Shown: positions 40,731 to 61,221, counted from the stretch's first letter. The stretch: 64,000 nt of DNA from Minisyncoccota bacterium (GCA_017991515.1 JAGOQI010000003.1:5921-69920), one strand, 5' to 3'. A program made the numbers and translations. Notes: a model not told the origin generated them from the sequence alone.

Positions 40731-40749
40731 AAGCTTTGTTACAAAAATT

Positions 40750-40833
40750 GCCCGAGTGGCGGAATGGTAGACGCGCTCGACTCAAAATCGAGTCTCGTAA
40801 GGGGTGGGAGTTCAAGTCTCCCCTCGGGCACCA
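40750..40833 (+). tRNA. tRNA-Leu (anticodon CAA), long variable arm, CCA encoded
   Basis: GCCCGAGTGGCGGAATGGTAGACGCGCTCGACTCAAAATCGAGTCTCGTAAGGGGTGGGAGTTCAAGTCTCCCCTCGGGCACCA. Confidence 0.9.
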
Positions 40834-40834
40834 T

Positions 40835-41653
40835 ATGGAAAAGATAATAGTAGTTTGTGGGCCGACAGCTACAGGTAAAAGTGATTATGCAGTAGAGCTT
40901 GCCAAGAAAGTTGGTGGTGAGGTTGTTTCTGCAGACTCACGACAGATATACAAAGGTTTAGATATTGGTAGTGGCAAAATTACCAAAAGAGAAATGAAAG
41001 GTGTTCCCCATCACTTACTAGATGTCGCAAATCCAAAAAGAGTATTTTCTGTAACACAATATAAAAAACTTGCTGACAAAGCAATCAAAGATATTTTGTC
41101 TCGTGGCAAAACTCCTATCATAGCTGGTGGAACAGGCTTTTATATTGATGCTATTATTTGCGACATTGTATTTCCTGCTGTACCTCCAAACAAAACCTTA
41201 CGAAAAGAATTAGAAAAACTATCTCTTGAAAAATTACAAGAAAAATTAGAAAATCTTGATCCGAGACGTTTCAATCTAGTAGACCAGAAAAACAAAGTTA
41301 GACTTATCAGAGCAATAGAAATAGCGACAGTACTGGGATCTGTACCTGAATTAAAGAAAACAAACTCTTACGATGTAGAGTGGATATGCTTGGACTTCTC
41401 TGATGACATACTGAAAGAGCGAATTCATATTCGTCTATTCGCGCGAATAAGGGGTATAGTTACAGAGGTAAAAAGATTGCACACTGAGGGTGTCTCTTGG
41501 AAAAGATTAGAGTCTTTAGGATTAGAATATAAGTATATGGCTCTTTATTTACAAAAGAAAATCTCAAGAGAAGAAATGGTAAGTGGGATTGAAAAAGATA
41601 GTTGGCAATATGCAAAACGCCAAAGAACTTGGTTTAAAAAATACGCAAAATAA
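40835..41653 (+). CDS. miaA: tRNA dimethylallyltransferase (MiaA)
   Basis: start placed at MEKIIVVCGPTATGKSDYAVELAKK (P-loop) ...DSRQIYKGLDIGSGK; the ORF-track start upstream overlaps the tRNA. Confidence 0.85.
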   Translation: MEKIIVVCGPTATGKSDYAVELAKKVGGEVVSADSRQIYKGLDIGSGKITKREMKGVPHHLLDVANPKRVFSVTQYKKLADKAIKDILSRGKTPIIAGGTGFYIDAIICDIVFPAVPPNKTLRKELEKLSLEKLQEKLENLDPRRFNLVDQKNKVRLIRAIEIATVLGSVPELKKTNSYDVEWICLDFSDDILKERIHIRLFARIRGIVTEVKRLHTEGVSWKRLESLGLEYKYMALYLQKKISREEMVSGIEKDSWQYAKRQRTWFKKYAK

Positions 41654-44519: not shown

Positions 44520-46238
44520 CTATAAAAGCTTTTTGAGTTTCTTCTGAATAAATTTATCAACATCATCAATATCTTTTTGAATATCTTTAAATATTATTTC
44601 TTCATTTTTACTTAAATCTCTACCTACACTTATTTTTTGAAGTTCAACAAGTTGATCGTTAAGCTCCTCTTTCAAAAGACTTACCGCTCTATGAGCATCT
44701 TCTGTCGCCCTTTGAAGAGCTGATCTGTTTCTTTTCTTTAAAGATAGGAACTTATACCAACCAACATATAAAAAGATTATTAATAGTAATACTAAGATAA
44801 TTGCCGAAATAATCCAGAAAATTGTTATAGTTATTTTAGCAATATCAACCTTAAGGACATTTAATTGTACTTTTTCTGAGGGTTGACTTTTAACTGACTC
44901 TGATAAAATGTTTCTTGCTGAAACATTAATAAGTCCAACTTTTCTAATATTGTCAGCTGTTAGAGAAAAAGATCCATCAGAAGAAATTGTTGTTATATAT
45001 TTTTTTATTTCAACTCCAGATAGTTCTAACACTATCTCTGCCTGTTTGTTTGGGTAGTCACTTTTTCCAAAAATAACTACTGATTCTCCTTTTTTTATTT
45101 CAGAAGAACTCAAAGAAATAACAGGTGTGGTGATAGAAGAACTAATAAAACTGGTGTCAGATTGTGTAGAGTTACCAGCACCATCATAAGCTATTACAGA
45201 AATACTGTGATCACCCTGAATTAATATTGGAAGAACATATTCAGAATCTTTTAGATCACTTTTTTTAACAGTTAATACCTGACTGTCATCTATTTTAAGA
45301 GTGTAATAATCTATACCAGATGTTGAGTCCTCAGCATTTAAATTAATAATACTTTGATTGTTCTCTGTTCTGATTGTTGGAATAAAAGGCTCTGGAGCTT
45401 TTGTATCAACTTTTATTTTAAAATTGGTTATAGGACCAAAACCATTGGAGTTAGCATATCTAATATGAAAATAAAATGTACCATCAGGAAGCTCCGTAAG
45501 TGTTTTTTGGGTAACAGAGTTGTCGTAAGAAGTTGTAGGAATTGAATCTGGAATTCTATTAGTAAAAGCTTGAATTGATGTCACCCCTGTTGGAGTTTTC
45601 CAACTAAAAGAGGCGGTGTTATCAGAGTACCAAAGGTTTTGATCTGGATGAGTGACAGAAGTTACAATTGGTTTAGGGGGTGTATTGGTCTTTACAGTTG
45701 CAGGTGGTGGCGTAGGTTGAGGTTCTTCTTTAGTGTCTACAATTTGTATAACACTTGTACCTCTTCCTGATAAAATATCAGTGCCTAAACCGTCATTTTC
45801 GCGTATAGCAGCATCAGAGAAAAGAAGTGAGGCAGTTCCCTGTTTTTTAGCCCTAAAGGTAACAGAAGCAACCGTACCAGTACTACCATTATAGCCAGGA
45901 TTTGCCACTCCTCCATTAAAAGAAACTGTGCCTTTTGTATTTGAATACTCAGGATTTTCTACCCATAATGAAAAAATAGAAGGGCTTTTTGTTATAGATA
46001 TTACTTCTAAGAGATCCACTGGGAACTGAAGTATCGCTTCAGCATTATTAATATACTTACCTTGTGTATTTATATTAATTTTTACAGATACTATATTACC
46101 AACATTAATATTAGAAGTACTCGGTGTTAAGGATAGTGTAGCTGCATTTACTAATGTTGGGGTAAGAACAAATAGTAATACCAGTGTTAGTATTTTTATA
46201 TTTCTACTTATTTTAAAAATAATTAATTTACTTATCAT
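44520..46238 (-). CDS. membrane-anchored surface protein with N-terminal cohesin-like domain, Pro/Thr linker, Ig/FN3-like domains, C-terminal TM and coiled-coil tail
   Basis: 572 aa; signal peptide; cohesin-like block (..NVGNIVSVKININTQG..GTVSFNGGVANPGYNGSTGTVASVTFRAKKQGTASL..); PTPPPATVKTNTPPKP linker; TM ITITIFWIISAIILVLLLIIFLYVGW. Confidence 0.6.
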   Translation of the reverse strand: MISKLIIFKISRNIKILTLVLLFVLTPTLVNAATLSLTPSTSNINVGNIVSVKININTQGKYINNAEAILQFPVDLLEVISITKSPSIFSLWVENPEYSNTKGTVSFNGGVANPGYNGSTGTVASVTFRAKKQGTASLLFSDAAIRENDGLGTDILSGRGTSVIQIVDTKEEPQPTPPPATVKTNTPPKPIVTSVTHPDQNLWYSDNTASFSWKTPTGVTSIQAFTNRIPDSIPTTSYDNSVTQKTLTELPDGTFYFHIRYANSNGFGPITNFKIKVDTKAPEPFIPTIRTENNQSIINLNAEDSTSGIDYYTLKIDDSQVLTVKKSDLKDSEYVLPILIQGDHSISVIAYDGAGNSTQSDTSFISSSITTPVISLSSSEIKKGESVVIFGKSDYPNKQAEIVLELSGVEIKKYITTISSDGSFSLTADNIRKVGLINVSARNILSESVKSQPSEKVQLNVLKVDIAKITITIFWIISAIILVLLLIIFLYVGWYKFLSLKKRNRSALQRATEDAHRAVSLLKEELNDQLVELQKISVGRDLSKNEEIIFKDIQKDIDDVDKFIQKKLKKLL

Positions 46239-47142
46239 TTTTCTTTTTATTCTTACGGAACTTTTTTACAATTTTAAAGATCATAATAATAAACAGAACT
46301 GTAATAATAACTGATAGCCAGCGGATTGGTTCTTTGGCTTTTAAGACTGAGACTTGAAAGTTTCCAGCTTTATCATAAGCAGTTACTATGACATCAACAT
46401 TTTTATTTTGATTAATTAATATATAACTAGTACCTGTGCGCACTGCTAGATATGCACCTTCTCTAACTTCATAGTAACTAATACCAGATTGGCTATCTGT
46501 AGTTTCAAAAGAGAGAAACTTTTTTCCATCAAATAAACTACTATCTTGTACTATTTTTATAATAAAAGGTTCAGGAGCAACATTATCATTTGAAACAATC
46601 TCTTGCCATTTGTTTTGCGGATTAACACTTGCCTTTCCAATAGAAATAACAGAAGTGTCTTTTGCAATATCTAAAGCTGTACCAAGACCATCATTTAAAT
46701 AGACAGCTACTTTAGTTGGTATTATGGAGAATTTTCCAGAATCGTTGATTTTAACAATAATCTTAAAAAGTAAAATACGATCACCATTTATCCCGTTTGG
46801 AATTCCTCCAACAAAAGAGATCTTACCTCCTTCTTCAAGGGAAGGTTTACGAGGCCATATATTAAAAACAGAATTAACAAGACTGAGCTCCTTAACTTCA
46901 AAGTTTCCATTGTGCTCATCTTTGAGAGTGATTAATCCTTCAATAGAGTTTATTGTTTGACCTTCTGTATTTAAATAAACATTGATAATACTAGTATCAC
47001 CAGAAGAAATTGTACTTTCAGCAGAAGAATTAATTGTGGCAGCAAGAGTTTTACTAGGCACAATAAATAATATAAATATTGGTATTAAGAAGATTATTGA
47101 TTTGTATTTTATTTGTTTTTTCATATAGGTTTTTTGCCCCAT
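46228..47142 (-). CDS. cohesin-like domain surface protein with C-terminal TM anchor (paralogue of the preceding gene)
   Basis: 304 aa; signal peptide; cohesin-like block (..GDTSIINVYLNTEGQ..GKISFVGGIPNGINGDRILLFKIIVKINDSGKFSI..) alignable to the 572-aa protein; C-terminal TM + KKFRKNKKKNDK. Confidence 0.6.
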   Translation of the reverse strand: MGQKTYMKKQIKYKSIIFLIPIFILFIVPSKTLAATINSSAESTISSGDTSIINVYLNTEGQTINSIEGLITLKDEHNGNFEVKELSLVNSVFNIWPRKPSLEEGGKISFVGGIPNGINGDRILLFKIIVKINDSGKFSIIPTKVAVYLNDGLGTALDIAKDTSVISIGKASVNPQNKWQEIVSNDNVAPEPFIIKIVQDSSLFDGKKFLSFETTDSQSGISYYEVREGAYLAVRTGTSYILINQNKNVDVIVTAYDKAGNFQVSVLKAKEPIRWLSVIITVLFIIMIFKIVKKFRKNKKKNDK

Positions 47143-49574
47143 TGATAAAGCATAATGGAGAAGTCAACTGAGTCTGCCTTACTATCGCTGTTTATATCTA
47201 CACATGGATTTTTGAAAGGAGGAGATGTCTTCCAGAAGTAAAGCAATATGGAAAAATCAACAGAATCAACTACCCCGCTTTTATTAAAATCAGCTCCATT
47301 ACAAGAACCTGTTGGGGTTGGTGGTAAAGTAGTATTACCTCCACCCCCGCCTCCACCACCTCCTCCTCCTCCACTACTTCCAGAAACAGTAAACACTCTT
47401 GATGCGCCAGAACTCTCAGTTCCAAAATACACTATTAATTTAAAATAATATGTGCCAGCTGTTGAGACTGCTGCGGAAAGGTTTGTATTCCAGTCTTCAC
47501 CTGGGTTTATAAATTTTGCCGCTGAGGCATAGTAAGCATCATCGTTGCCACCACATTCATTGGCCAGCGAAGACACGACACACCATTCATATTGATATTC
47601 ATATCCAGTAAGACCTTCATTTGTGATTGTAGTATTACCAATAACAGAACTTACAGATGCAGCTGTTACAGAGTTAATCAATACTTGAGCTGGAGAACCT
47701 GCTACTTCCCAATAATCATTTGTTAATACTGTTTTACCACTTTCTACTTGAGTTGAGGCAACTGTCTCCCAGAGACCTTGAGCTGCTCCACTATTTACAG
47801 TATAGGTATACTCATATACACCAGTACTAACCAAGTTCATAGCCACACCAGAGACAACAACATTGCGACTTACATCATAAAGAGTAATTGTTGGAGCTGC
47901 AAATGGCGCTGTTGGTGCAGAACTGCCATCTAAAATAAATATCTTAGTTCTATACATCTGACCTGTTTGAACGCGTTCAATGTTACCCATTTTTACGATC
48001 CAGCTACCAGAAACAGAAGTAGCCCTAGAAGAAACCGTAGCATCAAGGTTTGTTTTAACCTGCTCTCCTATTGAGTCCACAGTAGTAATAGAAGATGAAA
48101 GAACATTCCAAACATCGGCAGCAGTTATATCATTGCCATAACTAGAGAGAGTTCTTGTAGCATTTGCCCAGACTGCAGTAGCTACAGCAGAAGTTGAGTA
48201 ATCAGTGAGAGTACGGGTAGCTGATGTCCAAACATCAGCAGCAGACAGGTTGCTTGTGCCACGAGTAGAAACTTGTGTGTCTAAATTGTCGACAATAAGT
48301 TTTCCAACACTTCCTGAGGTAGTAAGTGCTGAAGTTGCTTTGTCCCAAATCGCACTAACTGAAGTTCCTGAAATATCTACACCCGAAGTTAGTGTTCGAG
48401 TTCCGGCTGACCAAACATCAGTTGCAGAAATATTATTGAGGTCATTTATTAATGTAGCGTTTGCTTGAGTTTGAGTAAGAATATCTGAAGCTTTTGCATC
48501 TACATTTGTTTTAACTTGTTCTCCAATCGAACCAACAGTCGTGAGTGTGGATGAAAGAACATTCCAAACATCAGCAGCAGTTATATCATTGCCATAACTA
48601 GATAGAGTACGAGTACTAGCTGCCCAAACACCAGTAGATACAGCATCTACTCCTGAGCTAGATAGAGTTCTTGTAGCATTTGCCCAGACATCACCTGCAG
48701 TTAAGTTACTTGTACCTCTACTTGAAACTTGAGCATCAAGATTATCTAAAATAAGTTTACCTACACTCCCAGAAGTAGTGAGCCCAGAAGTTGCCTTATC
48801 CCAAATGGAAGTAACTGAAGCACTGTCTATATTTACAGTCCCAGAATTAGTAGAACGAGTACCATAAGTCCAAATATCAGCGGCAGAAATATTGTTCAAA
48901 GAGTTTATAAGTGTTCTATTTGTTTGAATTTCAGTAACAATAGTTGCTTGAGACGAGTCTACATATGTTTCTGTTGCAAGTGAACCTCCTCCGGCGATAT
49001 CTTTTGTTGTCAGTTGACGAGTTGGGGCAAAGGTATTATTCCAAACATCGGCAGCAAGTGAGCCGAAGGCTGTAAGTGTTCGAGTTCCATTACTCCAAAC
49101 GCTAGTTGCTATATCAGAGACAAGTGAGCCAAACGATGTAAGAGTTCTAGTTCCCGCTGACCAAACTGAGGACGCAATAGAAGAATCTGTTACAACAGGA
49201 GCCTTAAGAATAAAAGACTTATCTAATTTTAATAAATCCCCACCAATAAGAGTGCCACAACTTATAAAAGCAGGGTACTTCCCTTCTGTTGCTGGTGTTG
49301 CATAAGAATAATAGTGCCAACCTGTAGCATCATCAGTCATTGTCGCACTACTTACCAAGGGTGTTCCAGACGGAGAGTATATAGAGATAGTACAATCATC
49401 AGTAGTTGGGGTGTAGTCGTCGTTGTATATAAATTCCCCGATTGTAATAGTCTCTAGTGGTATATATATGTCGGAAGCGTAAACATTTACCGGCAAGAAT
49501 AATACAAGCCAAAGAAAAAAACTTGCTTGAATATAAAAATAAAATATTGTATTTTTAAAATAAATAATTTTCAC
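47121..49574 (-). CDS. large secreted repeat protein with C-terminal dockerin domain (two Ca-binding-loop repeats) preceded by a poly-Gly linker
   Basis: 817 aa; signal peptide; two ~152-aa tandem repeats; GGGGGGGGGGGG linker; C-terminal DFNKSGVVDSVDFSILLYFW ... DINSDSKADSVDFSIMLYQW = duplicated dockerin F-hand segments. Confidence 0.7.
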   Translation of the reverse strand: MKIIYFKNTIFYFYIQASFFLWLVLFLPVNVYASDIYIPLETITIGEFIYNDDYTPTTDDCTISIYSPSGTPLVSSATMTDDATGWHYYSYATPATEGKYPAFISCGTLIGGDLLKLDKSFILKAPVVTDSSIASSVWSAGTRTLTSFGSLVSDIATSVWSNGTRTLTAFGSLAADVWNNTFAPTRQLTTKDIAGGGSLATETYVDSSQATIVTEIQTNRTLINSLNNISAADIWTYGTRSTNSGTVNIDSASVTSIWDKATSGLTTSGSVGKLILDNLDAQVSSRGTSNLTAGDVWANATRTLSSSGVDAVSTGVWAASTRTLSSYGNDITAADVWNVLSSTLTTVGSIGEQVKTNVDAKASDILTQTQANATLINDLNNISATDVWSAGTRTLTSGVDISGTSVSAIWDKATSALTTSGSVGKLIVDNLDTQVSTRGTSNLSAADVWTSATRTLTDYSTSAVATAVWANATRTLSSYGNDITAADVWNVLSSSITTVDSIGEQVKTNLDATVSSRATSVSGSWIVKMGNIERVQTGQMYRTKIFILDGSSAPTAPFAAPTITLYDVSRNVVVSGVAMNLVSTGVYEYTYTVNSGAAQGLWETVASTQVESGKTVLTNDYWEVAGSPAQVLINSVTAASVSSVIGNTTITNEGLTGYEYQYEWCVVSSLANECGGNDDAYYASAAKFINPGEDWNTNLSAAVSTAGTYYFKLIVYFGTESSGASRVFTVSGSSGGGGGGGGGGGGNTTLPPTPTGSCNGADFNKSGVVDSVDFSILLYFWKTSPPFKNPCVDINSDSKADSVDFSIMLYQWGKKPI
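48045..48965 (-). repeat. internal in-frame tandem duplication (~460 nt x 2) inside the dockerin protein gene
   Basis: near-identical stretches, e.g. gaaagaacattccaaacatc(g/a)gcagcagttatatcattgccataactaga occurring at ~48095 and ~48560; protein units ...LIN(S/D)LNNISA.D.W..GTR...DKATS.LTTSGSVGKLI.DNLD.QVS.RGTSNL.A.DVW...TRTL... Confidence 0.8.
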
Positions 49575-49643
49575 AAATCGCCTCTAAAAACAAAGTCGCA
49601 TAGATAGTTGCGCTAAAAATATCTCTTGGAGAAAATAAGAATA

Positions 49644-49817
49644 TTATTTTTTATTATCCCCTTCAACAACATCACTATCTGAACCTTTAAAAACACCTGT
49701 TAGGTTTTTAAAAGCTTGAACAAGATTCTTTGCAAGCTCTGGTATCTTCTTTGACCCAAAAAGAAGAACGATAACAACGGCAATTATAATGATTTCTTTT
49801 GTTCCTAATCCAAACAT
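49644..49817 (-). CDS. tatA: twin-arginine translocase subunit TatA (copy 1, 57 aa); not in the ORF track
   Basis: MFGLGTKEIIIIAVVIVLLFGSKKIPELAKNLVQAFKNL... matches the TatA TM helix - FG hinge - amphipathic helix pattern. Confidence 0.75.
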   Translation of the reverse strand: MFGLGTKEIIIIAVVIVLLFGSKKIPELAKNLVQAFKNLTGVFKGSDSDVVEGDNKK

Positions 49818-50012
49818 AAATATTAAACAAGTTAATTAATAAACCCTATATTACTACTTTTTACTAACATCACTATCTTTAAATGCCCCAAAAATATGTC
49901 GAATAGCATCAGCTATTGATTTTGTAAGCTCTGGTATCTTCTTTGACCCAAAAAGAAGAACGATAACAACGGCAATTATAATGATTTCTTTTGTTCCTAA
50001 TCCAAACATAAA
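49734..50012 (-). repeat. two identical 87-nt direct repeats (49734-49820 and 49926-50012) = 5' ends of the tandem tatA paralogues
   Basis: aagctctggtatcttctttgacccaaaaagaagaacgataacaacggcaattataatgatttcttttgttcctaatccaaacataaa occurs twice verbatim. Confidence 0.9.
49854..50009 (-). CDS. tatA: twin-arginine translocase subunit TatA (copy 2, 51 aa); not in the ORF track
   Basis: MFGLGTKEIIIIAVVIVLLFGSKKIPELTKSIADAIRHIFGAFKD...; first 28 codons identical at DNA level to copy 1. Confidence 0.75.
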   Translation of the reverse strand: MFGLGTKEIIIIAVVIVLLFGSKKIPELTKSIADAIRHIFGAFKDSDVSKK

Positions 50013-50024
50013 ATAAATTTATTT

Positions 50025-50756
50025 TTATACTTCTAAACTGCGACCACGACTACCTATACGATTAAACAAAACTGTAAGCTCAAAAATTAATATCAACGGC
50101 AACGCCATTAATATCAATGATAAACCATCAGTTGGGGGAAGTAAAGAGACAATTATAAAAATAGTGACTATAGCATGCTTCCTTTTAGATCTTAAGAATC
50201 TTACGCTAATAATACGTAAACGAATAAGAAAAGTAATGACTAATGGAAATATAAATAAAAGACCTAAAAGAGTTGAAGTTAGTATAATCTGATAAATATA
50301 TGAACTAATATCCCAATAATTAACAACTCCTAAGTTCACATTTATTAAAGCAATTAATCTAATTGCGTAGTAGAGCATCACTGAGCTATATAAAAACCCT
50401 ACTATAAATAACAGTAGCCCTAGTGGCAAAGATAGTAAAAAAAACTTTCGCTCTTTAGGAAGTAATGCTGATTTTAAAAATGAATAAAGAAAATAAATAA
50501 GTATAGGAACAGTCACTATAGAAGCCATAAAGAAGCCTATACTCATTCCAAGATCAACCAACTGAAAAGGTGAGGTAGTAGCAATAGTAACTCCATCTAT
50601 TACTAAGTATTTTAACATCAACTTTATGATAGGACCTATATTAAGAAAACTTATAGCAAATACAATAGCAAATATTTTTACAAGTAGAACTAATCTTCCT
50701 CTTAACTCTTCAAAGTAAGTAGCGTATTTAGCTAAATTTGTTTGGAAATTACTCAT
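50025..50756 (-). CDS. tatC: twin-arginine translocase subunit TatC
   Basis: 243 aa; 6 TM; N-terminal ..YFEELRGRLVLLVKIFAIVFAISF.. resembles the TatC HLxELRxRL motif; immediately upstream of tatA-tatA. Confidence 0.6.
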   Translation of the reverse strand: MSNFQTNLAKYATYFEELRGRLVLLVKIFAIVFAISFLNIGPIIKLMLKYLVIDGVTIATTSPFQLVDLGMSIGFFMASIVTVPILIYFLYSFLKSALLPKERKFFLLSLPLGLLLFIVGFLYSSVMLYYAIRLIALINVNLGVVNYWDISSYIYQIILTSTLLGLLFIFPLVITFLIRLRIISVRFLRSKRKHAIVTIFIIVSLLPPTDGLSLILMALPLILIFELTVLFNRIGSRGRSLEV

Positions 50757-50768
50757 AAAAATTTTAGG

Positions 50769-50951
50769 CTACTCTGACATTATAAAAATATTTCCACCAC
50801 CAGTTTTCTCTGGTGCTTCTAAAAGTAAATATTGAGTACCATTAGCCTCTACCAAGATATCATTAACTGATCCAACGTAAGCAATAAAAGGAAACTCAGT
50901 AATAAAATCCTGCCCTTCCCCTTCTTGAAAATTAATGTCAGTTAGTGCCAT
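50769..50951 (-). CDS. hypothetical small protein (60 aa) in the tat-linked operon
   Basis: ORF 12 nt upstream of tatC, same strand. Confidence 0.4.
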   Translation of the reverse strand: MALTDINFQEGEGQDFITEFPFIAYVGSVNDILVEANGTQYLLLEAPEKTGGGNIFIMSE

Positions 50952-50957
50952 AAAATT

Positions 50958-51563
50958 TTACCCAAATTTTCTTTTAGTTTTTCTATTTAACATACTTACA
51001 GCTTGCTCTTCTGGTATTACCTCTGGGACAATTTCTTCAACAGGTGTTAGAAAAACTTCTTGTTCTGGTTGTATACCTTCTGTAGGTACTTCTTCTTCAG
51101 GTAACACTTCCTCTTTAATTGTTTCTTCTGGAATATTTTCTTCTTCCTCAGCGGCTTCTTCTATGGTTTCCTCAATTTCTTCTTTTTGTTCATCTGGATT
51201 TATTTTTTTCTCTTCCATTTTTTCTTGTTCAGTAACTATAGCTTCATCTAAAGAACCAGGTTCAAGCTCTCCATTATCCATCTGTGCCAAAAGTTCGTTT
51301 GTCATCCTGACATATGAAGCTGCTGTATGGGTGGATGTCGGATCAATTTTTAAGATTTCTTCCCCAAGTTCTTTGTGTCCACTAAATTTATAAACAAGTC
51401 CTCCGTACTTTATATATTGAGCTTGAAATGTACCAGAAATTATATTAGGACTATCTACATCATAAAATTCAATAAGAGTACCATCTTCATAATCACCCGT
51501 AAGTGTAGCCACTTTTAGATTTTCACTTTCAAATACATTTTGGTCTTGAGTAATGTGAATCAT
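50958..51563 (-). CDS. hypothetical protein with Glu-rich low-complexity C-terminal tail
   Basis: 201 aa; C-terminus EEKKINPDEQKEEIEETIEEAAEEEENIPEETIKEEVLPEEEVPTEG. Confidence 0.5.
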   Translation of the reverse strand: MIHITQDQNVFESENLKVATLTGDYEDGTLIEFYDVDSPNIISGTFQAQYIKYGGLVYKFSGHKELGEEILKIDPTSTHTAASYVRMTNELLAQMDNGELEPGSLDEAIVTEQEKMEEKKINPDEQKEEIEETIEEAAEEEENIPEETIKEEVLPEEEVPTEGIQPEQEVFLTPVEEIVPEVIPEEQAVSMLNRKTKRKFG

Positions 51564-53696
51564 TTAATTTTGGGTGAGTAATGCTCTCACTTTTATGTTA
51601 TCTGCTAAAGACGTTGGAGTGTACCTTATATAGGTTGTCTCATTCCCTTTATCAGTAGTATCATATGCGCCCCAAGCACTACCATCGTTAGTAGATTTTT
51701 CAAAAACTCCAGAAGATTCTGCAGTAGTTGTGTCATCTAAAAGCAATCCGCCTGTTTCCGCATTATAAAGTCTAATTCGTAAGTTCGGTACTGTACTACT
51801 AAACGCAGTAGAGAATCTCCAAGCAAATATTTTGTTTATTGTCGAAGATTGTCCAACTGATGGTTGATAGTGTGAGTCAGTAGTATTATCTTCGTACACT
51901 AGAGTCATGCTATATATTCGTGCAGGAATACAATTCTCTCCTAAGATTTTAAATTCAAACATAAACTGGATAGCCGCTCCAGGTATGACACCAGTAAAAT
52001 CATGTGTGTCATCGAGCGCATTCCAAGCACCAGAATCGTCAGAAATTCCAGAAGTACGATAAAACATACGGTACGGTTCAGGTTGTAATCCGAGAGTACC
52101 AGAACCTAATTGCAAAGCATTATTTACATAAACACGATATAAAGTAGAAGCATCAGTAGTATCAAGAGATGGAGTTATGAGTCGCTGATATGGAGCTTGT
52201 CCTGCGTAAGCCCAGTGGACACCCGTCGGTACTGCATACAACTGGTTTAAGGTGACAGACGCAGTTACTCTGGCCATATAAGAGATACCACCTTCCGACC
52301 ACACTGAGAAAGGTAGTGCTGATATGGCCGGGTGTGGAGTAGCTCCCGAGTCCGTGGTGCTCTGATCGTACTGCTTATCATCAGAAAGAAATATGTGATC
52401 AAAAGGATCACCAGTTGTATTATATTTTGTCACATAGCTTCTAGCACCAGCTGTCCCAGAACTCATAACAATAAGCCTATCCATACTGTCAGCAATCTCA
52501 ACAGAACTTAAAGCAGAGTTAAGTGGGTATGTCACAGAACCACCAGGAGGAACCTCTATCATTGCATCACTTTGCCATGCAGGGTTACCACTAGTGATAT
52601 TACTAAGAGCCGCTCTATAAACTCTTGTTGTCGTCACAAAATACAATGATTCTACACCACTAGCAGGTCCATGGGTAAGTACCCCAATTCTTCCATTGTT
52701 TAACTGTGAACAAGTTCCAGTAGGTGTTTGGGCGGCAGTCACTAAAACAAATGCGGAGACAGATTTGCCAGAAGAAAGCCCAGCAAGAGGTGCTCGTATA
52801 TTGTATTTATACACCCTATTTGTAGTTGTTGTACCATCTATAACATAAATATAGTGCTGTAAAAAAGAGTCTCTGTCTTCAATAGCAGATCCGCAGGCGA
52901 TAGTGTTCGTAACAGTAGAAGCATCTGCCAACCAGTAACATGCTCGGATATTGTCAGTGGTAGTAGCTGCTGGTATTGTGGTTCCACCATTTGAAAATAC
53001 CGAGTCTCTTAAACCTTTTACTACAAACAATCCTCCGTTAGCCGGTGTAGCATTTGTTGTTGCTATTACTGCACGCAATTCCTCAACTACATATGCTCCA
53101 TTGGTAATAGTCCCAGCACTAGCAGTCAGTGTGATACTCGTGTCCGAAACAATAGAAGCAACTTCATACCATGTAGTAATTGATCCAGGGACAGTAGAAC
53201 CAAATCCTATACGAGAACCAACAGCAACTCCATCTGTAAGCCATGTCGTACCACTACCAGTAACTGTTGTGCCACTCACTGATGCTGTACCAGTAATGTG
53301 AAAGTCTCTCGTCATACGAAAACCTCTTACTGTATGAACTGTAGCTGTAGGAAAAGTAACGGTAATAAATCCATCCCAATTAAAAACCCCGGTTGAAATT
53401 GTATGTTGATATTTTATTATTCTTCTTGTAGCAGCTGCTGTTCCATTATCGATAAGAAATACCCAATTAACATCTGGATTAGACGTAGTGACAACATATG
53501 GAAAAACAGCAGCAATAGCAGTGCTGGCTTCCATTGGTCGAGCGAGCCCGATAGGCATGGGGCCCACAAATTTATCCAAACTGGTTGCACCAGTCCTCTG
53601 TTGAATTAAAACACCTAGATTAGTTTTACTGGGATCATAACTTGTGTATGGAGTAACAGCTCCAGTAAAAACATGTTCTATCGCTCGTTTTGCCAT
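51564..53696 (-). CDS. hypothetical large Thr/Gly/Ser/Ala-rich protein (710 aa), no signal peptide; composition atypical for this genome (structural/beta-rich?)
   Basis: long uninterrupted ORF; visibly GC-richer coding DNA than neighbours; abuts flanking genes with 0-8 nt spacers. Confidence 0.6.
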   Translation of the reverse strand: MAKRAIEHVFTGAVTPYTSYDPSKTNLGVLIQQRTGATSLDKFVGPMPIGLARPMEASTAIAAVFPYVVTTSNPDVNWVFLIDNGTAAATRRIIKYQHTISTGVFNWDGFITVTFPTATVHTVRGFRMTRDFHITGTASVSGTTVTGSGTTWLTDGVAVGSRIGFGSTVPGSITTWYEVASIVSDTSITLTASAGTITNGAYVVEELRAVIATTNATPANGGLFVVKGLRDSVFSNGGTTIPAATTTDNIRACYWLADASTVTNTIACGSAIEDRDSFLQHYIYVIDGTTTTNRVYKYNIRAPLAGLSSGKSVSAFVLVTAAQTPTGTCSQLNNGRIGVLTHGPASGVESLYFVTTTRVYRAALSNITSGNPAWQSDAMIEVPPGGSVTYPLNSALSSVEIADSMDRLIVMSSGTAGARSYVTKYNTTGDPFDHIFLSDDKQYDQSTTDSGATPHPAISALPFSVWSEGGISYMARVTASVTLNQLYAVPTGVHWAYAGQAPYQRLITPSLDTTDASTLYRVYVNNALQLGSGTLGLQPEPYRMFYRTSGISDDSGAWNALDDTHDFTGVIPGAAIQFMFEFKILGENCIPARIYSMTLVYEDNTTDSHYQPSVGQSSTINKIFAWRFSTAFSSTVPNLRIRLYNAETGGLLLDDTTTAESSGVFEKSTNDGSAWGAYDTTDKGNETTYIRYTPTSLADNIKVRALLTQN

Positions 53697-53703
53697 AAAT
53701 ATT

Positions 53704-54342
53704 TTATACTTCTAAATAATCAATGTTAATTTGCACTGTAGTTGTGCCAACTATAAAACAGTATAACACTTCATCGACTCCTCCTTCAATATAATTTGGA
53801 TGATTGTTTGCACCATAAAGCCCACCAGTCTTTGGGGAAACATATTTTTCATGATCAGTACCACCGGAAGTAAAACGAAATGATACAGAGGTCGCATCTG
53901 TTGTCAAAGAAAACCTCGAAGCATATACTCTTATTTTTTTTCCAGAAGCTGGAGTCCTAACATTTCCAGAAGCAGATAAATTTATAGATAACTTAGTAAC
54001 TCCTTGACCAGAAATTAAAGAAGCTAATGTCTCTTCAGTAGCAGGATTAATTCTATTGTTTGCATCATCCTTTAATCCAACGATATTTGAAGTAGGAGTA
54101 CTACCAGCTACATAAGCTTCTGCAGATTTTGGAAATAATGCCCCTGCAGCAAGCCCAAGACCTGCAACACCGGCAATTTTTAAAAATAGTCTCTTATTAT
54201 CATCAATAGATGAGTCAGGTGTTTCTACTAAAGAAATTGTTTCTTCTTTTTTTACCGGCAAAACAACATCTGGACGCAAAGTAATACTTTGATTTAAAGT
54301 ATTACTTTTTTTAACATCAAAATATTTTTTGGAATTAGACAT
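53704..54342 (-). CDS. hypothetical exported protein with twin-arginine-like (KR variant) signal peptide
   Basis: 212 aa; ..DDNKRLFLKIAGVAGLGLAAGALFPKSAEA-YV: consensus S/T-R-R-x-F-L-K with K-R, hydrophobic core, AxA cleavage site; a 48-aa extension precedes the motif, so the start may be further downstream. Confidence 0.55.
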   Translation of the reverse strand: MSNSKKYFDVKKSNTLNQSITLRPDVVLPVKKEETISLVETPDSSIDDNKRLFLKIAGVAGLGLAAGALFPKSAEAYVAGSTPTSNIVGLKDDANNRINPATEETLASLISGQGVTKLSINLSASGNVRTPASGKKIRVYASRFSLTTDATSVSFRFTSGGTDHEKYVSPKTGGLYGANNHPNYIEGGVDEVLYCFIVGTTTVQINIDYLEV

Positions 54343-56764: not shown

Positions 56765-57295
56765 ATGAAAGGTTCCATGAATACCGAAAACGAAAAACAA
56801 GCCTTATTTTCTAAGCTATTTGAAGAGTATCAAGATGCCATATTTAGGTTCACATTCTTTAGAGTGGGTAACAGACATATAGCCCTTGATATTACTCAAG
56901 ATACATTTGTAAGGCTTTGGAGGCATATATCCAAAGGTAAAACTATAGACCACGAAAGTGCCTTTGTTTACCGTATAGCAAAAAATGCTGTTATAGACTA
57001 CTACAAGAAGTCAAAAACTTTTTCATTAGACAGTATGCTTGAAAATGGATTCGATCCAGAAACTAATGTTCATACTGATGAAATATTCAAAAATGATGAC
57101 ATTAAAACAGTTCAGGATTTACTTGAAGACTTAGATGAGGAAAGTAAACAAATAATCTTCTTACGGTATACAGAAGAAAAACCTATAGAAGAGATAGCTG
57201 ATTTGTATGGCAAGACTACAAATGCTATGACAGTGCGTATTCATAGAATAGTCCAAAAACTCAAAGGTCGTTACAACGAAACACAATATGATTGA
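56765..57295 (+). CDS. RNA polymerase sigma factor, sigma-70 ECF subfamily
   Basis: 176 aa; region 2 (..DAIFRFTFFRVGNRHIALDITQDTFVRLW..) and region 4 HTH (..IIFLRYTEEKPIEEIADLYGKTTNAMTVRIHRIVQKLK). Confidence 0.85.
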   Translation: MKGSMNTENEKQALFSKLFEEYQDAIFRFTFFRVGNRHIALDITQDTFVRLWRHISKGKTIDHESAFVYRIAKNAVIDYYKKSKTFSLDSMLENGFDPETNVHTDEIFKNDDIKTVQDLLEDLDEESKQIIFLRYTEEKPIEEIADLYGKTTNAMTVRIHRIVQKLKGRYNETQYD

Positions 57296-58061
57296 TAAAA
57301 AAATTGAACAATTAAAAATGTTAAAAGATATCACTCTTTCTGAAAAAGAACGGGGTATTCTTCGTACCAAGATTGCTAGAAGTATTCAAACACTAGAATC
57401 TACACCAAAAATATCTTATTTTTACAGTGGAGTCAGTCATGGTCTTCGTATTGGCTTATCAACATTTCTATTTATAGTTTTCGTTGGCGGGAGTGTTTCT
57501 GTTGTAGCTGATAATTCCCTTCCTGGAGATCCTTTGTACTCATTTAAAATAAATGTAAACGAAGAAGTTAAAGGTGCTTTTATAAAAAGCCCTGCAGACA
57601 AACTCTCATATCAAACAACTCTAATAGATAATCGTTTAACAGAAATCAAAACTCTTGCTGCTTCAAAAACACTAACAAAAGCTAAACAAGAAACAGCTCA
57701 AAAAGCATTGGATACTCACATAGAGTCACTTTCAAAACAACTCTCTACACTCTCTGATGCGAAGCCTGCAGAAGCTTTAAAAGTAACAGCAACTCTTGAA
57801 GAGAGCTTGAAAGTACAAAAAGAAGACCTAGAAAAAATTATTGTAAAAGAAAATAGTGATACAACAGATACTGCTTTGAAAGCCGTAGATGATACTATAA
57901 AAAAAGTATCTGCCCAAGAAGTAAAAATAATCTCAAAAGAAATTGATCAACTTGTTTTAGATATAAAAGAAGTTCCAGAAACTAAAGTTACAGGAGAAAC
58001 AGAAGTAAAATCTACTACTGAAGTTAAGGCTCCTGCTCTACCTTCTTCTCCATTAAGATAA
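57288..58061 (+). CDS. DUF5667-type membrane protein, candidate anti-sigma factor partner
   Basis: 257 aa; overlaps the sigma gene by 8 nt; single TM then LPGDPLYSFK hallmark motif and extended helical region. Confidence 0.65.
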   Translation: MIDKKIEQLKMLKDITLSEKERGILRTKIARSIQTLESTPKISYFYSGVSHGLRIGLSTFLFIVFVGGSVSVVADNSLPGDPLYSFKINVNEEVKGAFIKSPADKLSYQTTLIDNRLTEIKTLAASKTLTKAKQETAQKALDTHIESLSKQLSTLSDAKPAEALKVTATLEESLKVQKEDLEKIIVKENSDTTDTALKAVDDTIKKVSAQEVKIISKEIDQLVLDIKEVPETKVTGETEVKSTTEVKAPALPSSPLR

Positions 58062-59352
58062 AAAGAATTATCACCACCAATAAAACTCCGCCAAAAATTA
58101 ACTTTTTTGATTGCGGATTTTTATTTTTCTCCGGTTCTATTTTAAAATCTTGAATATTAAGAACATTTTGATCTTCTAGTGTGTTTTCATTATAAATACC
58201 AAGAACCTTTGGTGCACTTACTTGAGAAGACGACTTTACTTCTGTATTGTTTTTCTCCTGAACTACACTGTTAACTATATCAACTCTTTGAGATGTTTGA
58301 AGAACAGCATTTGTATATTTATTATCAGAGATACCAAAAGAACTAAATGGCATCAAAACACTCTTTTTAGATGCAATAATAGTAAATGCTGGTAATTCGA
58401 TTAATTTATTATCAGGTAATTCAATAAACCAACCAGAGATATCTATGGGTACTACATCAGAGTTCGTGAACTCAAAACCTTTTTCAGAGATAACCCTGAA
58501 ACTAATTTGATTATTAATAACCGTTTTTTCAATAGAACTATAGAGAAAAGGTTTCTTTTCATAAGGTGCTCTAAAATAAGCAAATGAAATAGTGTAAAGA
58601 CCAGGATAATTATAAGTATGATTTATAATTTCATTTTTATTAGACTTGTAAACTGTTCCATCGCCCATATTCCAAAGAAATAATCCTTCGTAAGCTTGCC
58701 CAAACTCTAAAAATGTTTTAGCACTATACTCTGCACTAACTTTAATATAAACATTTTTTGGTATTGATATTTCTATATGAGGTTCAGATTTAGGGGCTGA
58801 CCAAGCTACTCCTGTATTATTTTTTGGAGGATCTCCTGGTGTATCTTCTGCACCTTTTGGAGTCGCAGACTTAGGAGTTGGATTTGTGGTAATCCATTTT
58901 GAACCATCCCATTGCATAGTTTGTTTTGTAGTTGCATCTCCTGCTGGCCAACCAGAAGAAAAATCTAAACTTTGCTCTATTGTTCCTACTGAATTTTTTA
59001 ATACTAAATACTCTCCAGTATTTGCAAAACCGCTACCACTAAATGGTCCTGACTCATCATTTATACCTGGAACTGGGTCGGGACTACTAGCTGTCGTTCT
59101 TTCTACTAATAAATACCCTTCTGAAGAAATAGTTTTTGTTAGAGTAAAAACAAGTTGATCTCCTCCACCTTCATAAAGTTTCCAACCAGACAAGGAAACA
59201 TTTTCCGCACTATCATTGTACAATTCAATCCATTCTCCAAACTGACTTTCTGCCGTACCCATCCAGGCAATCTCTGTAATACGAACACTAGCAAAAGCAT
59301 AGTTTGTTATCAATAACACCGTGCATATGAACAATGTTGCAAAACGAATCAT
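58024..59352 (-). CDS. lamin-tail-domain (LTD) secreted protein with C-terminal TM anchor
   Basis: 442 aa; signal peptide; LTD-like block RITEIAWMGTAESQFGEWIELYNDSAENVSLSGWKL..GYLLVE and a second degenerate copy (ISGWFIELPDNKLIELPAFTIIA); C-terminal TM LIFGGVLLVVIILFILM. Confidence 0.6.
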   Translation of the reverse strand: MIRFATLFICTVLLITNYAFASVRITEIAWMGTAESQFGEWIELYNDSAENVSLSGWKLYEGGGDQLVFTLTKTISSEGYLLVERTTASSPDPVPGINDESGPFSGSGFANTGEYLVLKNSVGTIEQSLDFSSGWPAGDATTKQTMQWDGSKWITTNPTPKSATPKGAEDTPGDPPKNNTGVAWSAPKSEPHIEISIPKNVYIKVSAEYSAKTFLEFGQAYEGLFLWNMGDGTVYKSNKNEIINHTYNYPGLYTISFAYFRAPYEKKPFLYSSIEKTVINNQISFRVISEKGFEFTNSDVVPIDISGWFIELPDNKLIELPAFTIIASKKSVLMPFSSFGISDNKYTNAVLQTSQRVDIVNSVVQEKNNTEVKSSSQVSAPKVLGIYNENTLEDQNVLNIQDFKIEPEKNKNPQSKKLIFGGVLLVVIILFILMEKKVEQEP

Positions 59353-59361
59353 GTTAAAAAA

Positions 59362-61221
59362 TTATTCTAAAATCTTTTTCAAATCTTTATGAGAAATTTC
59401 TTGAGGATTTGTATTTTCTTTTTCTTGTATAAGATCTTCTTGTTTTTGTTTTAATGGAATTTCTACAATATTTTCCTCTGATGTTTTATTTCCAGAAGTT
59501 GCTTTTAAAAGAGCTTCTTTTAAAAGATTTCTGTGAGCTTCTGTTGGGCCCCTTTCTGCATGCTTAACAGGTGGAACAGTTTCAGAAAGAGTTTTTTCTC
59601 CAGTAAAAGGTGCTTTTTGTTGAGGAACTGGTTTGAAAGATTTTTCTTTTTTCTCAGAAGAACTATCAATCGAGTCTAGTAGTTTAGAGAGTTCAGGACT
59701 TGGCTTTATTACAGAACCTTCTTCTGGTTTCAAATCAGTTTTTTCAAATATTTTTTTAAAAGGATTATGAGTTTTTGGCTGTATAGGCTTTTGTGTTTCT
59801 ACTTCAATAACTTTTTCTACTGAAGTATTAGTTGACTGTAGTTTCTTTTCATAAACATCTTTATTTACAGGAACATATGGCTTCTTTTCTGTTGGCTTAG
59901 CAGGTTTATTATTTTGAATATCAGACTCATCAGTTTTAAACCAAGCGGCAATATTTTCTTCAACCCTATCTTTTGGTTTTGCAAAATTTGCTCGAGTCCA
60001 TTCAATAACATCATTCCGATATGTTATAGCTGGTTTTTGTATTGGAAATAAGGTTTTGGCAGAAAATGGAGGTGAACCAATATCATTAATCATAAGGGAC
60101 AAATAAATCTGCGCCATGCCTAAATTTATCAGGTCTGTGGCGGTAAACTGTGGGGCGTAAACTTTCTCTAAAAGCTCAGCATCAAGTGGTCCTACACGAA
60201 ATGAAATACTAGTTCCAACGTTACCAAAAACAGCGTCTCTTACAGATTCTTCCATTTGGGCTATGTATTGGTGAGCAATGATAAGAGCAAGTTTATACTT
60301 ACGAGCTTCTGACAAAATATTAGCAAAAGATTCGTTGGCAAAAGACTGGAATTCATCGACATAGAAATAAAAAGGCGGAAGATCTGCCATGCGAGAATAA
60401 GAAACATCTGCACGACTCATGGCTGCAATATAAATCTTAGTAATAATCATAGAACCAAGAAGACTAGTATTTTGTTCGCCAATACGGCCTTTTGAGAGGT
60501 TAACAATAAGAATTTTCTTATTGTCCATAATGTCTCGAACATCAAAACTAGACTTCGGTTGTCCGATAATATTTCTTATCAAAGGGTTGGCTGTAAACTG
60601 ACCGATTTTGTTTTGAATTGCCGCACCTGCTTCTTGCATATATCTCTCACCATATTTTTCAAATTCATCAGTCCAAAAAGCTTTTACAGATGGGTCTGTA
60701 ATACTTGCAACCACCTTTTTTCTAAAAGCTTTATCAGAGAGCATTCTGTTCACCCCGAGAAGTGTTGCGTCAGGATATTCTAAAAGTGCCAAAAGAATAT
60801 TATTCAAAATATATTCCATACGAGCACTCCAAGCATCTACCCAAATTTTCTTGAAGGTACTCATAAGACCAGAGGCTACAAAGTGTCTCTTATCTTCCCC
60901 TATGTCTTCCAGCATGTTAAAAGACACAGGATGCTCGAGGTCAAAAGGAGCAAAGTAGACCACATCTTTTATGCGGTGCTCAGGTATGTAGTCGAGCATT
61001 TTTTCAGCAAAAGAGCCGTGAGGATCAAGAACAGCTACACCTTCTCCATTTTGGATATCTTGGATAGCCATATTTTCAAGAAGTGTAGACTTACCTACAC
61101 CCGACTTTCCCACTACATACATGTGTCGAGTACGGTCGCGAGTTTTTATACCAAAACGAGTTTGTTGATTACGAAAATTTGTCTCGCCAAAATAAGTTAT
61201 TCGCTCACCTTCATTTTGCAT
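59362..61221 (-). CDS. soluble FtsK/HerA-superfamily ATPase resembling type IV secretion coupling proteins (TraD/TraG/VirD4-like), with low-complexity C-terminal tail
   Basis: 619 aa; Walker A VVGKSGVGKST; ..YFYVDEFQSFANESFANILSEARKYKLALIIAHQYIAQM.. resembling the Walker B / TraG-D C-terminal region; no N-terminal TM. Confidence 0.5.
   Translation of the reverse strand: MQNEGERITYFGETNFRNQQTRFGIKTRDRTRHMYVVGKSGVGKSTLLENMAIQDIQNGEGVAVLDPHGSFAEKMLDYIPEHRIKDVVYFAPFDLEHPVSFNMLEDIGEDKRHFVASGLMSTFKKIWVDAWSARMEYILNNILLALLEYPDATLLGVNRMLSDKAFRKKVVASITDPSVKAFWTDEFEKYGERYMQEAGAAIQNKIGQFTANPLIRNIIGQPKSSFDVRDIMDNKKILIVNLSKGRIGEQNTSLLGSMIITKIYIAAMSRADVSYSRMADLPPFYFYVDEFQSFANESFANILSEARKYKLALIIAHQYIAQMEESVRDAVFGNVGTSISFRVGPLDAELLEKVYAPQFTATDLINLGMAQIYLSLMINDIGSPPFSAKTLFPIQKPAITYRNDVIEWTRANFAKPKDRVEENIAAWFKTDESDIQNNKPAKPTEKKPYVPVNKDVYEKKLQSTNTSVEKVIEVETQKPIQPKTHNPFKKIFEKTDLKPEEGSVIKPSPELSKLLDSIDSSSEKKEKSFKPVPQQKAPFTGEKTLSETVPPVKHAERGPTEAHRNLLKEALLKATSGNKTSEENIVEIPLKQKQEDLIQEKENTNPQEISHKDLKKILE

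Follow-up and report, generated by a model that had tools for sequence, protein, structure and literature searches.

What a cohesin-dockerin gene set builds in a Patescibacterium, at a locus that offers no glycoside hydrolase for it to carry, is the question raised by three overlapping genes in a 64,000-nucleotide stretch of DNA from a Minisyncoccota bacterium (GCA_017991515.1 JAGOQI010000003.1:5921-69920), the whole of which is called the window here and the remainder of which is housekeeping chromosome. The genes lie on the minus strand in the order C-B-A. The reading favored here, at a probability of about 0.72, is that the triad is a non-cellulosomal cohesin-dockerin surface assembly of a bacterium of the Paceibacteria type (Patescibacteria, or candidate phyla radiation, CPR). 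The analysis establishes which domains the three proteins contain, their topology and paralogy, the strict adjacency of their genes and how broadly they are conserved; the three genes, each called as an open reading frame (ORF), are as follows.

44520..46238, minus strand: gene A, long type I membrane anchor, 572 aa.
46228..47142, minus strand: gene B, short type I membrane anchor, 304 aa as called.
47121..49574, minus strand: gene C, secreted enzyme-free fiber protein, 817 aa.

The positions and strand of the overlapping genes stand as the initial annotation gave them, and as called the A and B frames overlap by 11 nt and the B and C frames by 22 nt. However, the true start of B is more likely the second ATG, at 47124, because this ATG overlaps the C stop codon as ATGA and the orthologues begin with MK; B would then have 298 aa, and an overlap of 4 nt with C is thus likelier than the 22 nt first reported. 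Gene C starts with GTG, with AGAGG 6-7 nt 5' of it. A has over 350 homologues and C over 370, which argues that the triad is not a product of chance.

Protein C is composed of the following parts.

49473..49574, minus strand: signal peptide, residues 1-34, cleaved at ..VNVYA|S (hydropathy).
49200..49472, minus strand: N-terminal beta-sandwich, residues 35-125 (AlphaFold, predicted local distance difference test score, pLDDT, ~90).
48000..49187, minus strand: repeat stalk, residues 130-525 (protein-level motifs).
47382..47999, minus strand: tandem macroglobulin/FN3-like beta-sandwiches, residues 526-731 (Pfam MG2, AlphaFold, Foldseek).
47337..47372, minus strand: Gly12 linker, residues 735-746 (position in the sequence).
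47130..47297, minus strand: type I-like dockerin, residues 760-815 (Pfam on the tail, profile against PDB).

The C-terminal part carries most of the argument. It had been described as a duplicated dockerin behind a Gly12 run, and both segments are found there, at residues 762-781 and 793-812, with 12 of 20 positions identical. The isolated 74-aa tail scores 30.8 bits with Pfam Dockerin_1 (PF00404), over the cut-off of 22.9, and the whole protein scores 20.7 bits, under it. The two tandem segments each harbor an EF-hand-like loop, D-x-N-x-(S/D)-x3-D-x2-D, followed by a helix; the calcium-loop residues are D762, N764, S766, D770 and D773 in the first segment and D793, N795, D797, D801 and D804 in the second, and most of these positions are invariant or nearly so among C orthologues. 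Dockerin_1 matches all 26 orthologue tails scanned (best 7.5e-17) and EF-hand models match nine of them, and a profile of the orthologue tails retrieves solved type I dockerins from the PDB, with CelS (2mte) at 6e-12. The same motif stands at or near the C-terminus of all 66 C orthologues located upstream of a B gene, and the dockerin is the best-conserved part of C (0.68, over the 27 sequence sets formed by the window and 26 loci). Many C homologues already carry precomputed PF00404 and PF01835 assignments. By analogy with clostridial type I dockerins, the near-identity of the helices of both segments suggests that this dockerin could bind a cohesin in either orientation, and its loops predict that it depends on Ca2+. 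A Cys pair, Cys758/Cys791, accompanies the dockerin of C. Among the window and the orthologues at loci L003-L082, dockerins split into two Cys patterns, one with a Cys before each segment, as in the window, and one with a Cys before segment 1 and another within the first calcium loop (FNCD); this split suggests that the patterns are alternative disulfide clasps.

Candidate partners for such a dockerin are encoded by the two adjoining genes, whose domains are listed below.

45735..46142, minus strand: cohesin domain of A, residues 33-168 (AlphaFold and Foldseek).
44853..45668, minus strand: stalk of A, three immunoglobulin (Ig)/FN3-like domains, residues 191-462 (Big_13, profile against PDB).
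44523..44837, minus strand: transmembrane helix of A, residues ~468-494, and charged cytoplasmic tail, residues 495-572 (hydropathy, charge).
46633..47040, minus strand: cohesin domain of B, residues ~35-170 (homology to the A cohesin).

AlphaFold models residues 30-172 of A with confidence (pLDDT 89.7, predicted template modeling score 0.84), giving the nine-stranded flattened beta-sandwich (jelly-roll) of cohesins. A Foldseek comparison of this model with the PDB has revealed cohesins as all of its top 47 matches, so that no non-cohesin fold, which would have spoken against the initial annotation, is seen for the N-terminal block of A; the best matches are type I cohesins, with E ~4e-10, template modeling scores of 0.76-0.82 and root-mean-square deviations of 2.1-2.8 A. 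Pfam Cohesin (PF00963) finds the domain in 5 of 34 orthologues of A, with 6.1e-9 as the best value, and in 5 of 32 orthologues of B, with a best value of 3.2e-7; some A orthologues bear the NCBI label 'cohesin domain-containing protein'. The cohesin is also the best-conserved part of A (0.58, over the same 27 sequence sets as the dockerin value). B had been called a paralogue of A with a cohesin-like domain and a C-terminal transmembrane helix, and both features are borne out: a cohesin hidden Markov model (HMM) built from A orthologues scores 68 bits on B (E 2e-20), and hydropathy places the helix at residues 270-296. The N-terminal domains of the two proteins share 27% identity over 188 aa (E 6e-15), including the motifs LW..P, F.GG.P.G and NDGLGT common to both cohesins, and they also share one Ig-like domain (34% over 85 aa).

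Below their cohesins, the two anchors differ in length. In A, a Pro/Thr linker separates the cohesin from the Ig-like domains; Big_13 matches 30 of 34 A orthologues, and the A family profile finds the Lap adhesin 6xi3 (3.9e-8) and 2yn3 through their Ig-like repeats. The protein has an N-terminal signal, a single transmembrane segment and a charged tail of 77 aa with conserved columns. Hence, hydropathy, the model and the profiles uphold the signal, cohesin-like domain, linker, Ig-like domains and transmembrane helix first attributed to A, whereas the cytoplasmic coiled coil fares less well, as the heptad pattern in the tail is weak. By hydropathy, B has a signal, the C-terminal helix and a Lys-rich tail. 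It has one Ig-like domain (residues ~189-265), and an NCBIfam OmpL47-type domain gives a weak match in it.

The rest of C has the features of an extracellular fiber. Its N-terminal signal is its sole hydrophobic segment by hydropathy and is followed by AxA-like cleavage sites in the orthologues too; since this signal peptide has no twin-arginine motif, Sec export of C is deduced. The N-terminal beta-sandwich, with a mean pairwise identity of 0.49, contains Cys61 and Cys106, which are invariant and nearly invariant, and in the model it would form the membrane-distal tip if the dockerin were docked. In the stalk, the motif (D)VWxxxTRTLT occurs eight times and a segment of ~150 aa is duplicated internally; these repeats are visible at the protein level only, as Tandem Repeats Finder reports no tandem repeat in the C DNA. 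The stalk has a pLDDT of ~40 in the monomer AlphaFold model, and its length is highly variable between species, C-family and other dockerin-cargo proteins ranging from 361 to 2555 aa. The macroglobulin/FN3-like domains, modeled with a pLDDT of 88-90, are recognized by Pfam MG2 (34.4 bits, cut-off 32.8), and Foldseek matches them (residues 526-731) to TEP1, alpha2-macroglobulin, C3, RbmA and the Lap adhesin at ~5e-8. Their Cys665 and Cys674 are invariant, and each folded domain of C has its own Cys pair, fitting an extracellular location. A poly-Gly run precedes the dockerin in most of the 66 C orthologues. No catalytic domain is detected in C, in which Pfam gives MG2 and Dockerin only and Foldseek gives sandwiches of the macroglobulin/FN3 type. 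PHROGs yields no match for A, B or C, and single-sequence PDB searches with the three proteins return nothing useful, the C matches being the Gly-linkers of single-chain variable fragments. In a Foldseek comparison with BFVD, the C model aligns over ~750 columns with two uncharacterized Caudovirales proteins (E 1.6e-15 and 3.5e-13). A phage tail-fiber origin of C is not claimed, because these alignments rest on a low-confidence region and a tblastn comparison of the repeat region with 50,697 phage records gave no match.

The gene arrangement links the dockerin to the cohesins across the family, which is confined to Patescibacteria and mostly to Paceibacteria lineages; a pattern-limited scan with one genome per species found an A relative in 238 species. 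Among 81 distinct loci, B precedes A in 75 and the full C-B-A order is kept in 65. By the dockerin HMM, each of 70 loci has a single dockerin ORF, and by the cohesin HMM 69 have two cohesin ORFs; in the window, the same models detect a single dockerin ORF and two cohesin ORFs, in agreement with the one cargo and two anchors initially proposed. After removal of one duplicate locus, the distance from the dockerin ORF to the start of the following cohesin ORF is -64 to +68 nt (median 7 nt) in 69 of 69 loci. A dockerin gene is present in 53 of the 59 loci with enough upstream DNA. Against 1.84 billion representative proteins, the dockerin profile finds 687 at E<=1e-10, the closest mostly of the C family, along with other architectures (short proteins with macroglobulin domains only, FN3-repeat proteins and a family with the N-terminus A-x-LTFVSDT). 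At four loci with such other cargo architectures, the gene directly downstream encodes a B-like cohesin anchor, so that the rule 'dockerin gene, then cohesin anchor gene' holds across cargo types. As a separate observation, locus L086 (11545..16266), in a relative, has a C-B-A set with a short cargo of 361 aa, after which comes a protein of 1573 aa; this protein has a Peptidase_S74 domain, known from phage tail fibers and endosialidases as their self-cleaving chaperone.

The model proposed here is that A and B would be exported by Sec, lose their signal peptides and be kept in the cytoplasmic membrane by their single C-terminal helix. Each would hold one type I-like cohesin at its outer tip, at two heights, as the stalk of A (the Pro/Thr linker and three Ig-like domains) is long and that of B (one Ig-like domain) is short. 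C would be exported by Sec and then released, and its C-terminal, internally symmetric dockerin, behind the flexible Gly12 run, would plug into the cohesin of A, of B or of both, while its macroglobulin-like domains, variable stalk and N-terminal beta-sandwich tip would project outward as a fiber. That the dockerin of C binds the cohesins of A and B, and the orientation and stoichiometry of such binding, are inferred here. The absence of a catalytic domain from the fiber makes a structural or adhesive role the likeliest, with the fiber touching a host cell, a surface or the envelope layers of its own cell; an attachment role of C-B-A is likewise presumed.

Several results weigh against this reading. 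Pfam Cohesin does not match A or B themselves, even at E<=1. Therefore, of the HMM scan initially suggested with PF00963 and PF00404, only the second part succeeded, on the isolated C tail, and the membership of A and B in Cohesin by sequence is one of transitive homology, because orthologues match while A and B do not. Neither the A family profile nor a profile of its cohesin domain alone retrieves solved cohesins from the PDB sequences, which is why the fold search was needed. When AlphaFold models C at full length, confidence is low for the dockerin and high for the three beta-sandwich domains only. Mutual-information covariation between dockerin and cohesin columns in 69 genomes is not above that with a control domain. 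Six loci (L026, L057, L063, L065, L075 and L078) have an A-like anchor and no dockerin gene in the 1.5-10 kb upstream, and at L065 a B-like anchor is seen besides the A-like one, again with no local dockerin gene. Finally, with dockerin cargos other than C present in relatives, a fixed 1:1:1 complex is no more than possible.

Comparison with known systems places the triad outside the cellulosomes, as the three features that define them are missing. Dockerins on glycoside hydrolases or other carbohydrate-active enzymes (CAZymes) are not found: C has no such domain, and no glycoside hydrolase appears among the ~40 of the window's 56 ORFs (>=120 aa) that were scanned, which agrees with the initial statement that glycoside hydrolases are absent. 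There is no multi-cohesin scaffoldin with a carbohydrate-binding module (CBM), as A and B have one cohesin each and CBM77 reaches only E 0.47. There is no attachment by S-layer homology (SLH) domains or sortase either, A and B ending in a transmembrane helix and a basic tail with no SLH match. There are nonetheless points of resemblance to the clostridial anchors (OlpA/OlpC of Acetivibrio thermocellus, CipC of Ruminiclostridium cellulolyticum): the fold of A is nearest to the type I cohesins 2vn5, 1g1k, 3ul4 and 4dh2; the dockerin of C has duplicated 22-residue calcium-loop/helix segments, a CelS-type match and internal symmetry; and the cargo has the C-terminal dockerin and the cell-bound protein the cohesin. 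Unlike the clostridial system, C-B-A has no glycoside hydrolase, CBM or multi-cohesin scaffoldin, carries one cohesin per anchor, is anchored by C-terminal transmembrane helices instead of SLH domains or sortase, and belongs to a Patescibacterium with a reduced genome.

The closest concept (Peer et al. 2009, FEMS Microbiol Lett 291:1, cited in PMC10066038) is that of non-cellulosomal cohesin/dockerin modules, which are used outside plant cell-wall degradation. Cohesins of Archaeoglobus fulgidus (2xdh) and of Clostridium perfringens toxin complexes (2jh2/2vo8/2w1n) are among the fold matches of A (ranks 21, 22, 29 and 35). C-B-A differs from such modules in being a fixed syntenic three-gene set with membrane anchors, conserved across a class, and in that C is a non-enzymatic fiber, not a hydrolase or toxin. 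The Ruminococcus bromii amylosome and R. flavefaciens ScaE also use few cohesin anchors to display dockerin proteins on a surface of Gram-positive type, and the R. bromii Amy12 dockerin (9qfa) is among the matches of the C-tail profile, but their cargos are enzymes and their anchors are linked by sortase. The Ig/FN3/macroglobulin repeats of Lap/SiiE-type adhesins and of the biofilm matrix scaffold RbmA resemble the stalk domains of A and C, and the variable stalk length of C is typical of fibrillar adhesins. These, however, are single polypeptides held through type I secretion system (T1SS) retention modules or matrix contacts, whereas in C-B-A the fiber and the anchor are separate proteins, presumably joined by cohesin and dockerin. 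The three-gene module is not described for Patescibacteria or Parcubacteria in the literature searched. Domain labels on some orthologues are already present in automated annotation; the synteny, transmembrane anchoring, class-wide conservation and link to a twin-arginine translocation (Tat) system were not found described.

This last link comes from the genes upstream of C.

49644..50756, minus strand: tatC, tatA and tatA (Pfam TatC 117 bits; TatA_B_E 42.8 and 44.8 bits).
50769..50951, minus strand: u60, 60 aa (synteny).
50958..51563, minus strand: u201, 201 aa, with an acidic tail (synteny).
51564..53696, minus strand: u710, 710 aa (synteny).
53704..54342, minus strand: u212, with the twin-arginine-type signal KRLFLK (synteny, motif).

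The tat genes lie directly upstream of C on the same strand, with gaps of 15, 36 and 69 nt, and eleven genes, with ychF next, follow one another on one strand with gaps of at most 69 nt and no convincing internal terminator. The order u212-u710-u201-u60-tatC-tatA(-tatA)-C-B-A recurs in many Paceibacteria genomes, and, by gene order, C-B-A closes a conserved operon-like row headed by a Tat-signal protein. Of the 38 loci whose upstream DNA is long enough to judge, 26 have the tat genes directly upstream of C; in five further loci, which have no tat there, u212 lies next to C in divergent orientation. In u212, a hydrophobic stretch and then an AxA site come after the KRLFLK motif. Each of the 23 u212 relatives that phmmer identifies has a (K/R)(K/R)-x-hydrophobic motif, and in 21 of these it takes the form (K/R)R-x-F-(L/I/F)-K in a signal-peptide context; RR occurs in 4 orthologues, and most of the others have KR. 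The components of a Tat system, namely TatC, TatA family proteins and a substrate with an S/T-R-R-x-F-L-K-type signal, are thus found among the neighboring genes. C, B and A have no Tat motif and bear Sec-type signals instead, and hydropathy detects no signal or transmembrane segment in u710, u201 and u60. None of u212, u710, u201 and u60 has a Pfam or PDB sequence match, a dockerin or a cohesin, and profiles of u710 and u212 find nothing significant in the PDB. u710 is better conserved than C, B or A: its homologues number more than 1500, with identities of 50-80%, and all of them are labeled 'hypothetical' and lack a Pfam domain; one database protein, KBC11_01535 from a Candidatus Pacebacteria bacterium, is 100% identical. 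It occurs as 2-3 tandem paralogues at L021, L031, L033 and L035, and gives a weak tail-fiber match in PHROGs (2.6e-4, residues 135-203 only). Tat genes have been noted in Paceibacteria (PMC9166423); the literature searched holds no description of Tat substrates of Paceibacteria or of a Tat link to cohesin-dockerin genes.

It could be argued that the triad forms just the distal end of a larger envelope apparatus encoded by the whole u212-to-A row, with Tat and Sec cargos co-assembling on the cohesin anchors into a single lineage-specific surface structure and a dedicated Tat translocon exporting folded u212, possibly together with signal-less partners such as u710. The compact single-strand row, its recurrent order, the frequent position of tat or u212 beside C, the conserved u212 signal and the lack of export signals in u710, u201 and u60 speak for this view. 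Nevertheless, linkage is not interaction: tat is not beside C in about one third of the informative loci, the four upstream proteins carry no dockerin or cohesin and match no fold or family (Pfam, PHROGs and PDB searches), and the signals of C, B and A are of the Sec type. We consider this rather unlikely, though clearly worth keeping in mind, and slightly more probable than the proposal that A and B, as minimal scaffolds with one socket, serve as a general platform on which several different dockerin proteins encoded elsewhere in the genome are displayed, in the manner of cellulosome or amylosome anchors, with C a merely neighboring cargo. The latter arises because the same type of dockerin is found on other cargos, so that the anchors may not belong to a fixed three-part complex; non-C architectures are among the closest of the 687 dockerin proteins, cohesins at two heights could serve different cargos, and PMC10633639 reports a dockerin protein to be essential in a Saccharibacterium. 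Yet every one of the 70 neighborhoods with any dockerin ORF has exactly one, alternative cargos replace C beside their own anchor instead of being added to it, and no cargo seen has an enzyme domain, which makes the platform doubtful.

Much less probable, and the least likely of these rivals, is that the cohesin-like and dockerin-like domains do not interact at all and that the genes encode three independent, co-transcribed surface proteins, the dockerin acting as a Ca2+-stabilized glycan- or host-binding module and the cohesin-like beta-sandwiches as generic adhesin tips. Non-cellulosomal dockerins have indeed been proposed to be adhesins themselves (PMC10066038; PMC10633639), and the covariation between dockerin and cohesin is no stronger than with the control domain. 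Such independence can hardly explain the near-invariant pairing of a dockerin gene with a following cohesin gene in hundreds of species and with several cargo types; moreover, a C-terminal dockerin behind a flexible linker occupies the docking position of known systems, and the dockerin and the A cohesin are the most constrained parts of their proteins. The surface assembly of C on A and B is retained as the preferred reading.

Some other features of the window lie apart from this row. The leucyl-tRNA synthetase gene (8651..11521, minus) encodes an unusual fusion, with a NUDIX hydrolase domain inserted after the editing domain (residues 392-514, 57 bits). A gene for a VirD4/TraG-type coupling ATPase (59362..61221, minus) adjoins one for a secreted protein with lamin-tail and PKD domains (58024..59352, minus), and both (58024..61221, minus) may be part of a Patescibacteria type IV secretion or conjugation-like machinery. 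At 56765..58061 (plus), an extracytoplasmic function (ECF)-type sigma factor gene overlaps that of a DUF5667 membrane protein, its probable anti-sigma partner. The ORF of miaA (isopentenyl pyrophosphate, IPP, transferase; 40736..41653, plus), listed with a TTG start, overlaps a tRNA on the same strand (40750..40830, plus); as the Pfam match begins at residue 37, the real start is placed farther downstream.

Patescibacteria account for a sizeable portion of bacterial diversity, and an attached life on other cells is assumed for many of them; to our knowledge, very little has been learned of the surface molecules behind this attachment except in a few Saccharibacteria. A more novel lead than C-B-A is the larger gene row. 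It is conceivable, although improbable at present, that the row from u212 to A (44520..54342) is a class-wide Paceibacteria surface organelle not described before, in which a dedicated Tat translocon would deliver folded u212, perhaps with the signal-less u710 hitchhiking, the Sec-delivered dockerin fiber would be mounted on two cohesin anchors of different height, and the conserved cytoplasmic tail of A would couple the structure to the cell interior. If so, it would be a device by which ultra-small cells touch hosts or surfaces. The surface assembly of C, B and A in itself provides a concrete handle, because cohesin-dockerin binding is easily tested with recombinant domains: it predicts which protein is displayed, the way in which it is held and its distance from the membrane. 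Its parts could also serve as tags to label or pull down these cells and their partners. The cohesin-dockerin principle would in this manner be extended to a transmembrane-anchored, enzyme-free fiber in a reduced genome, genomically linked to a Tat system.

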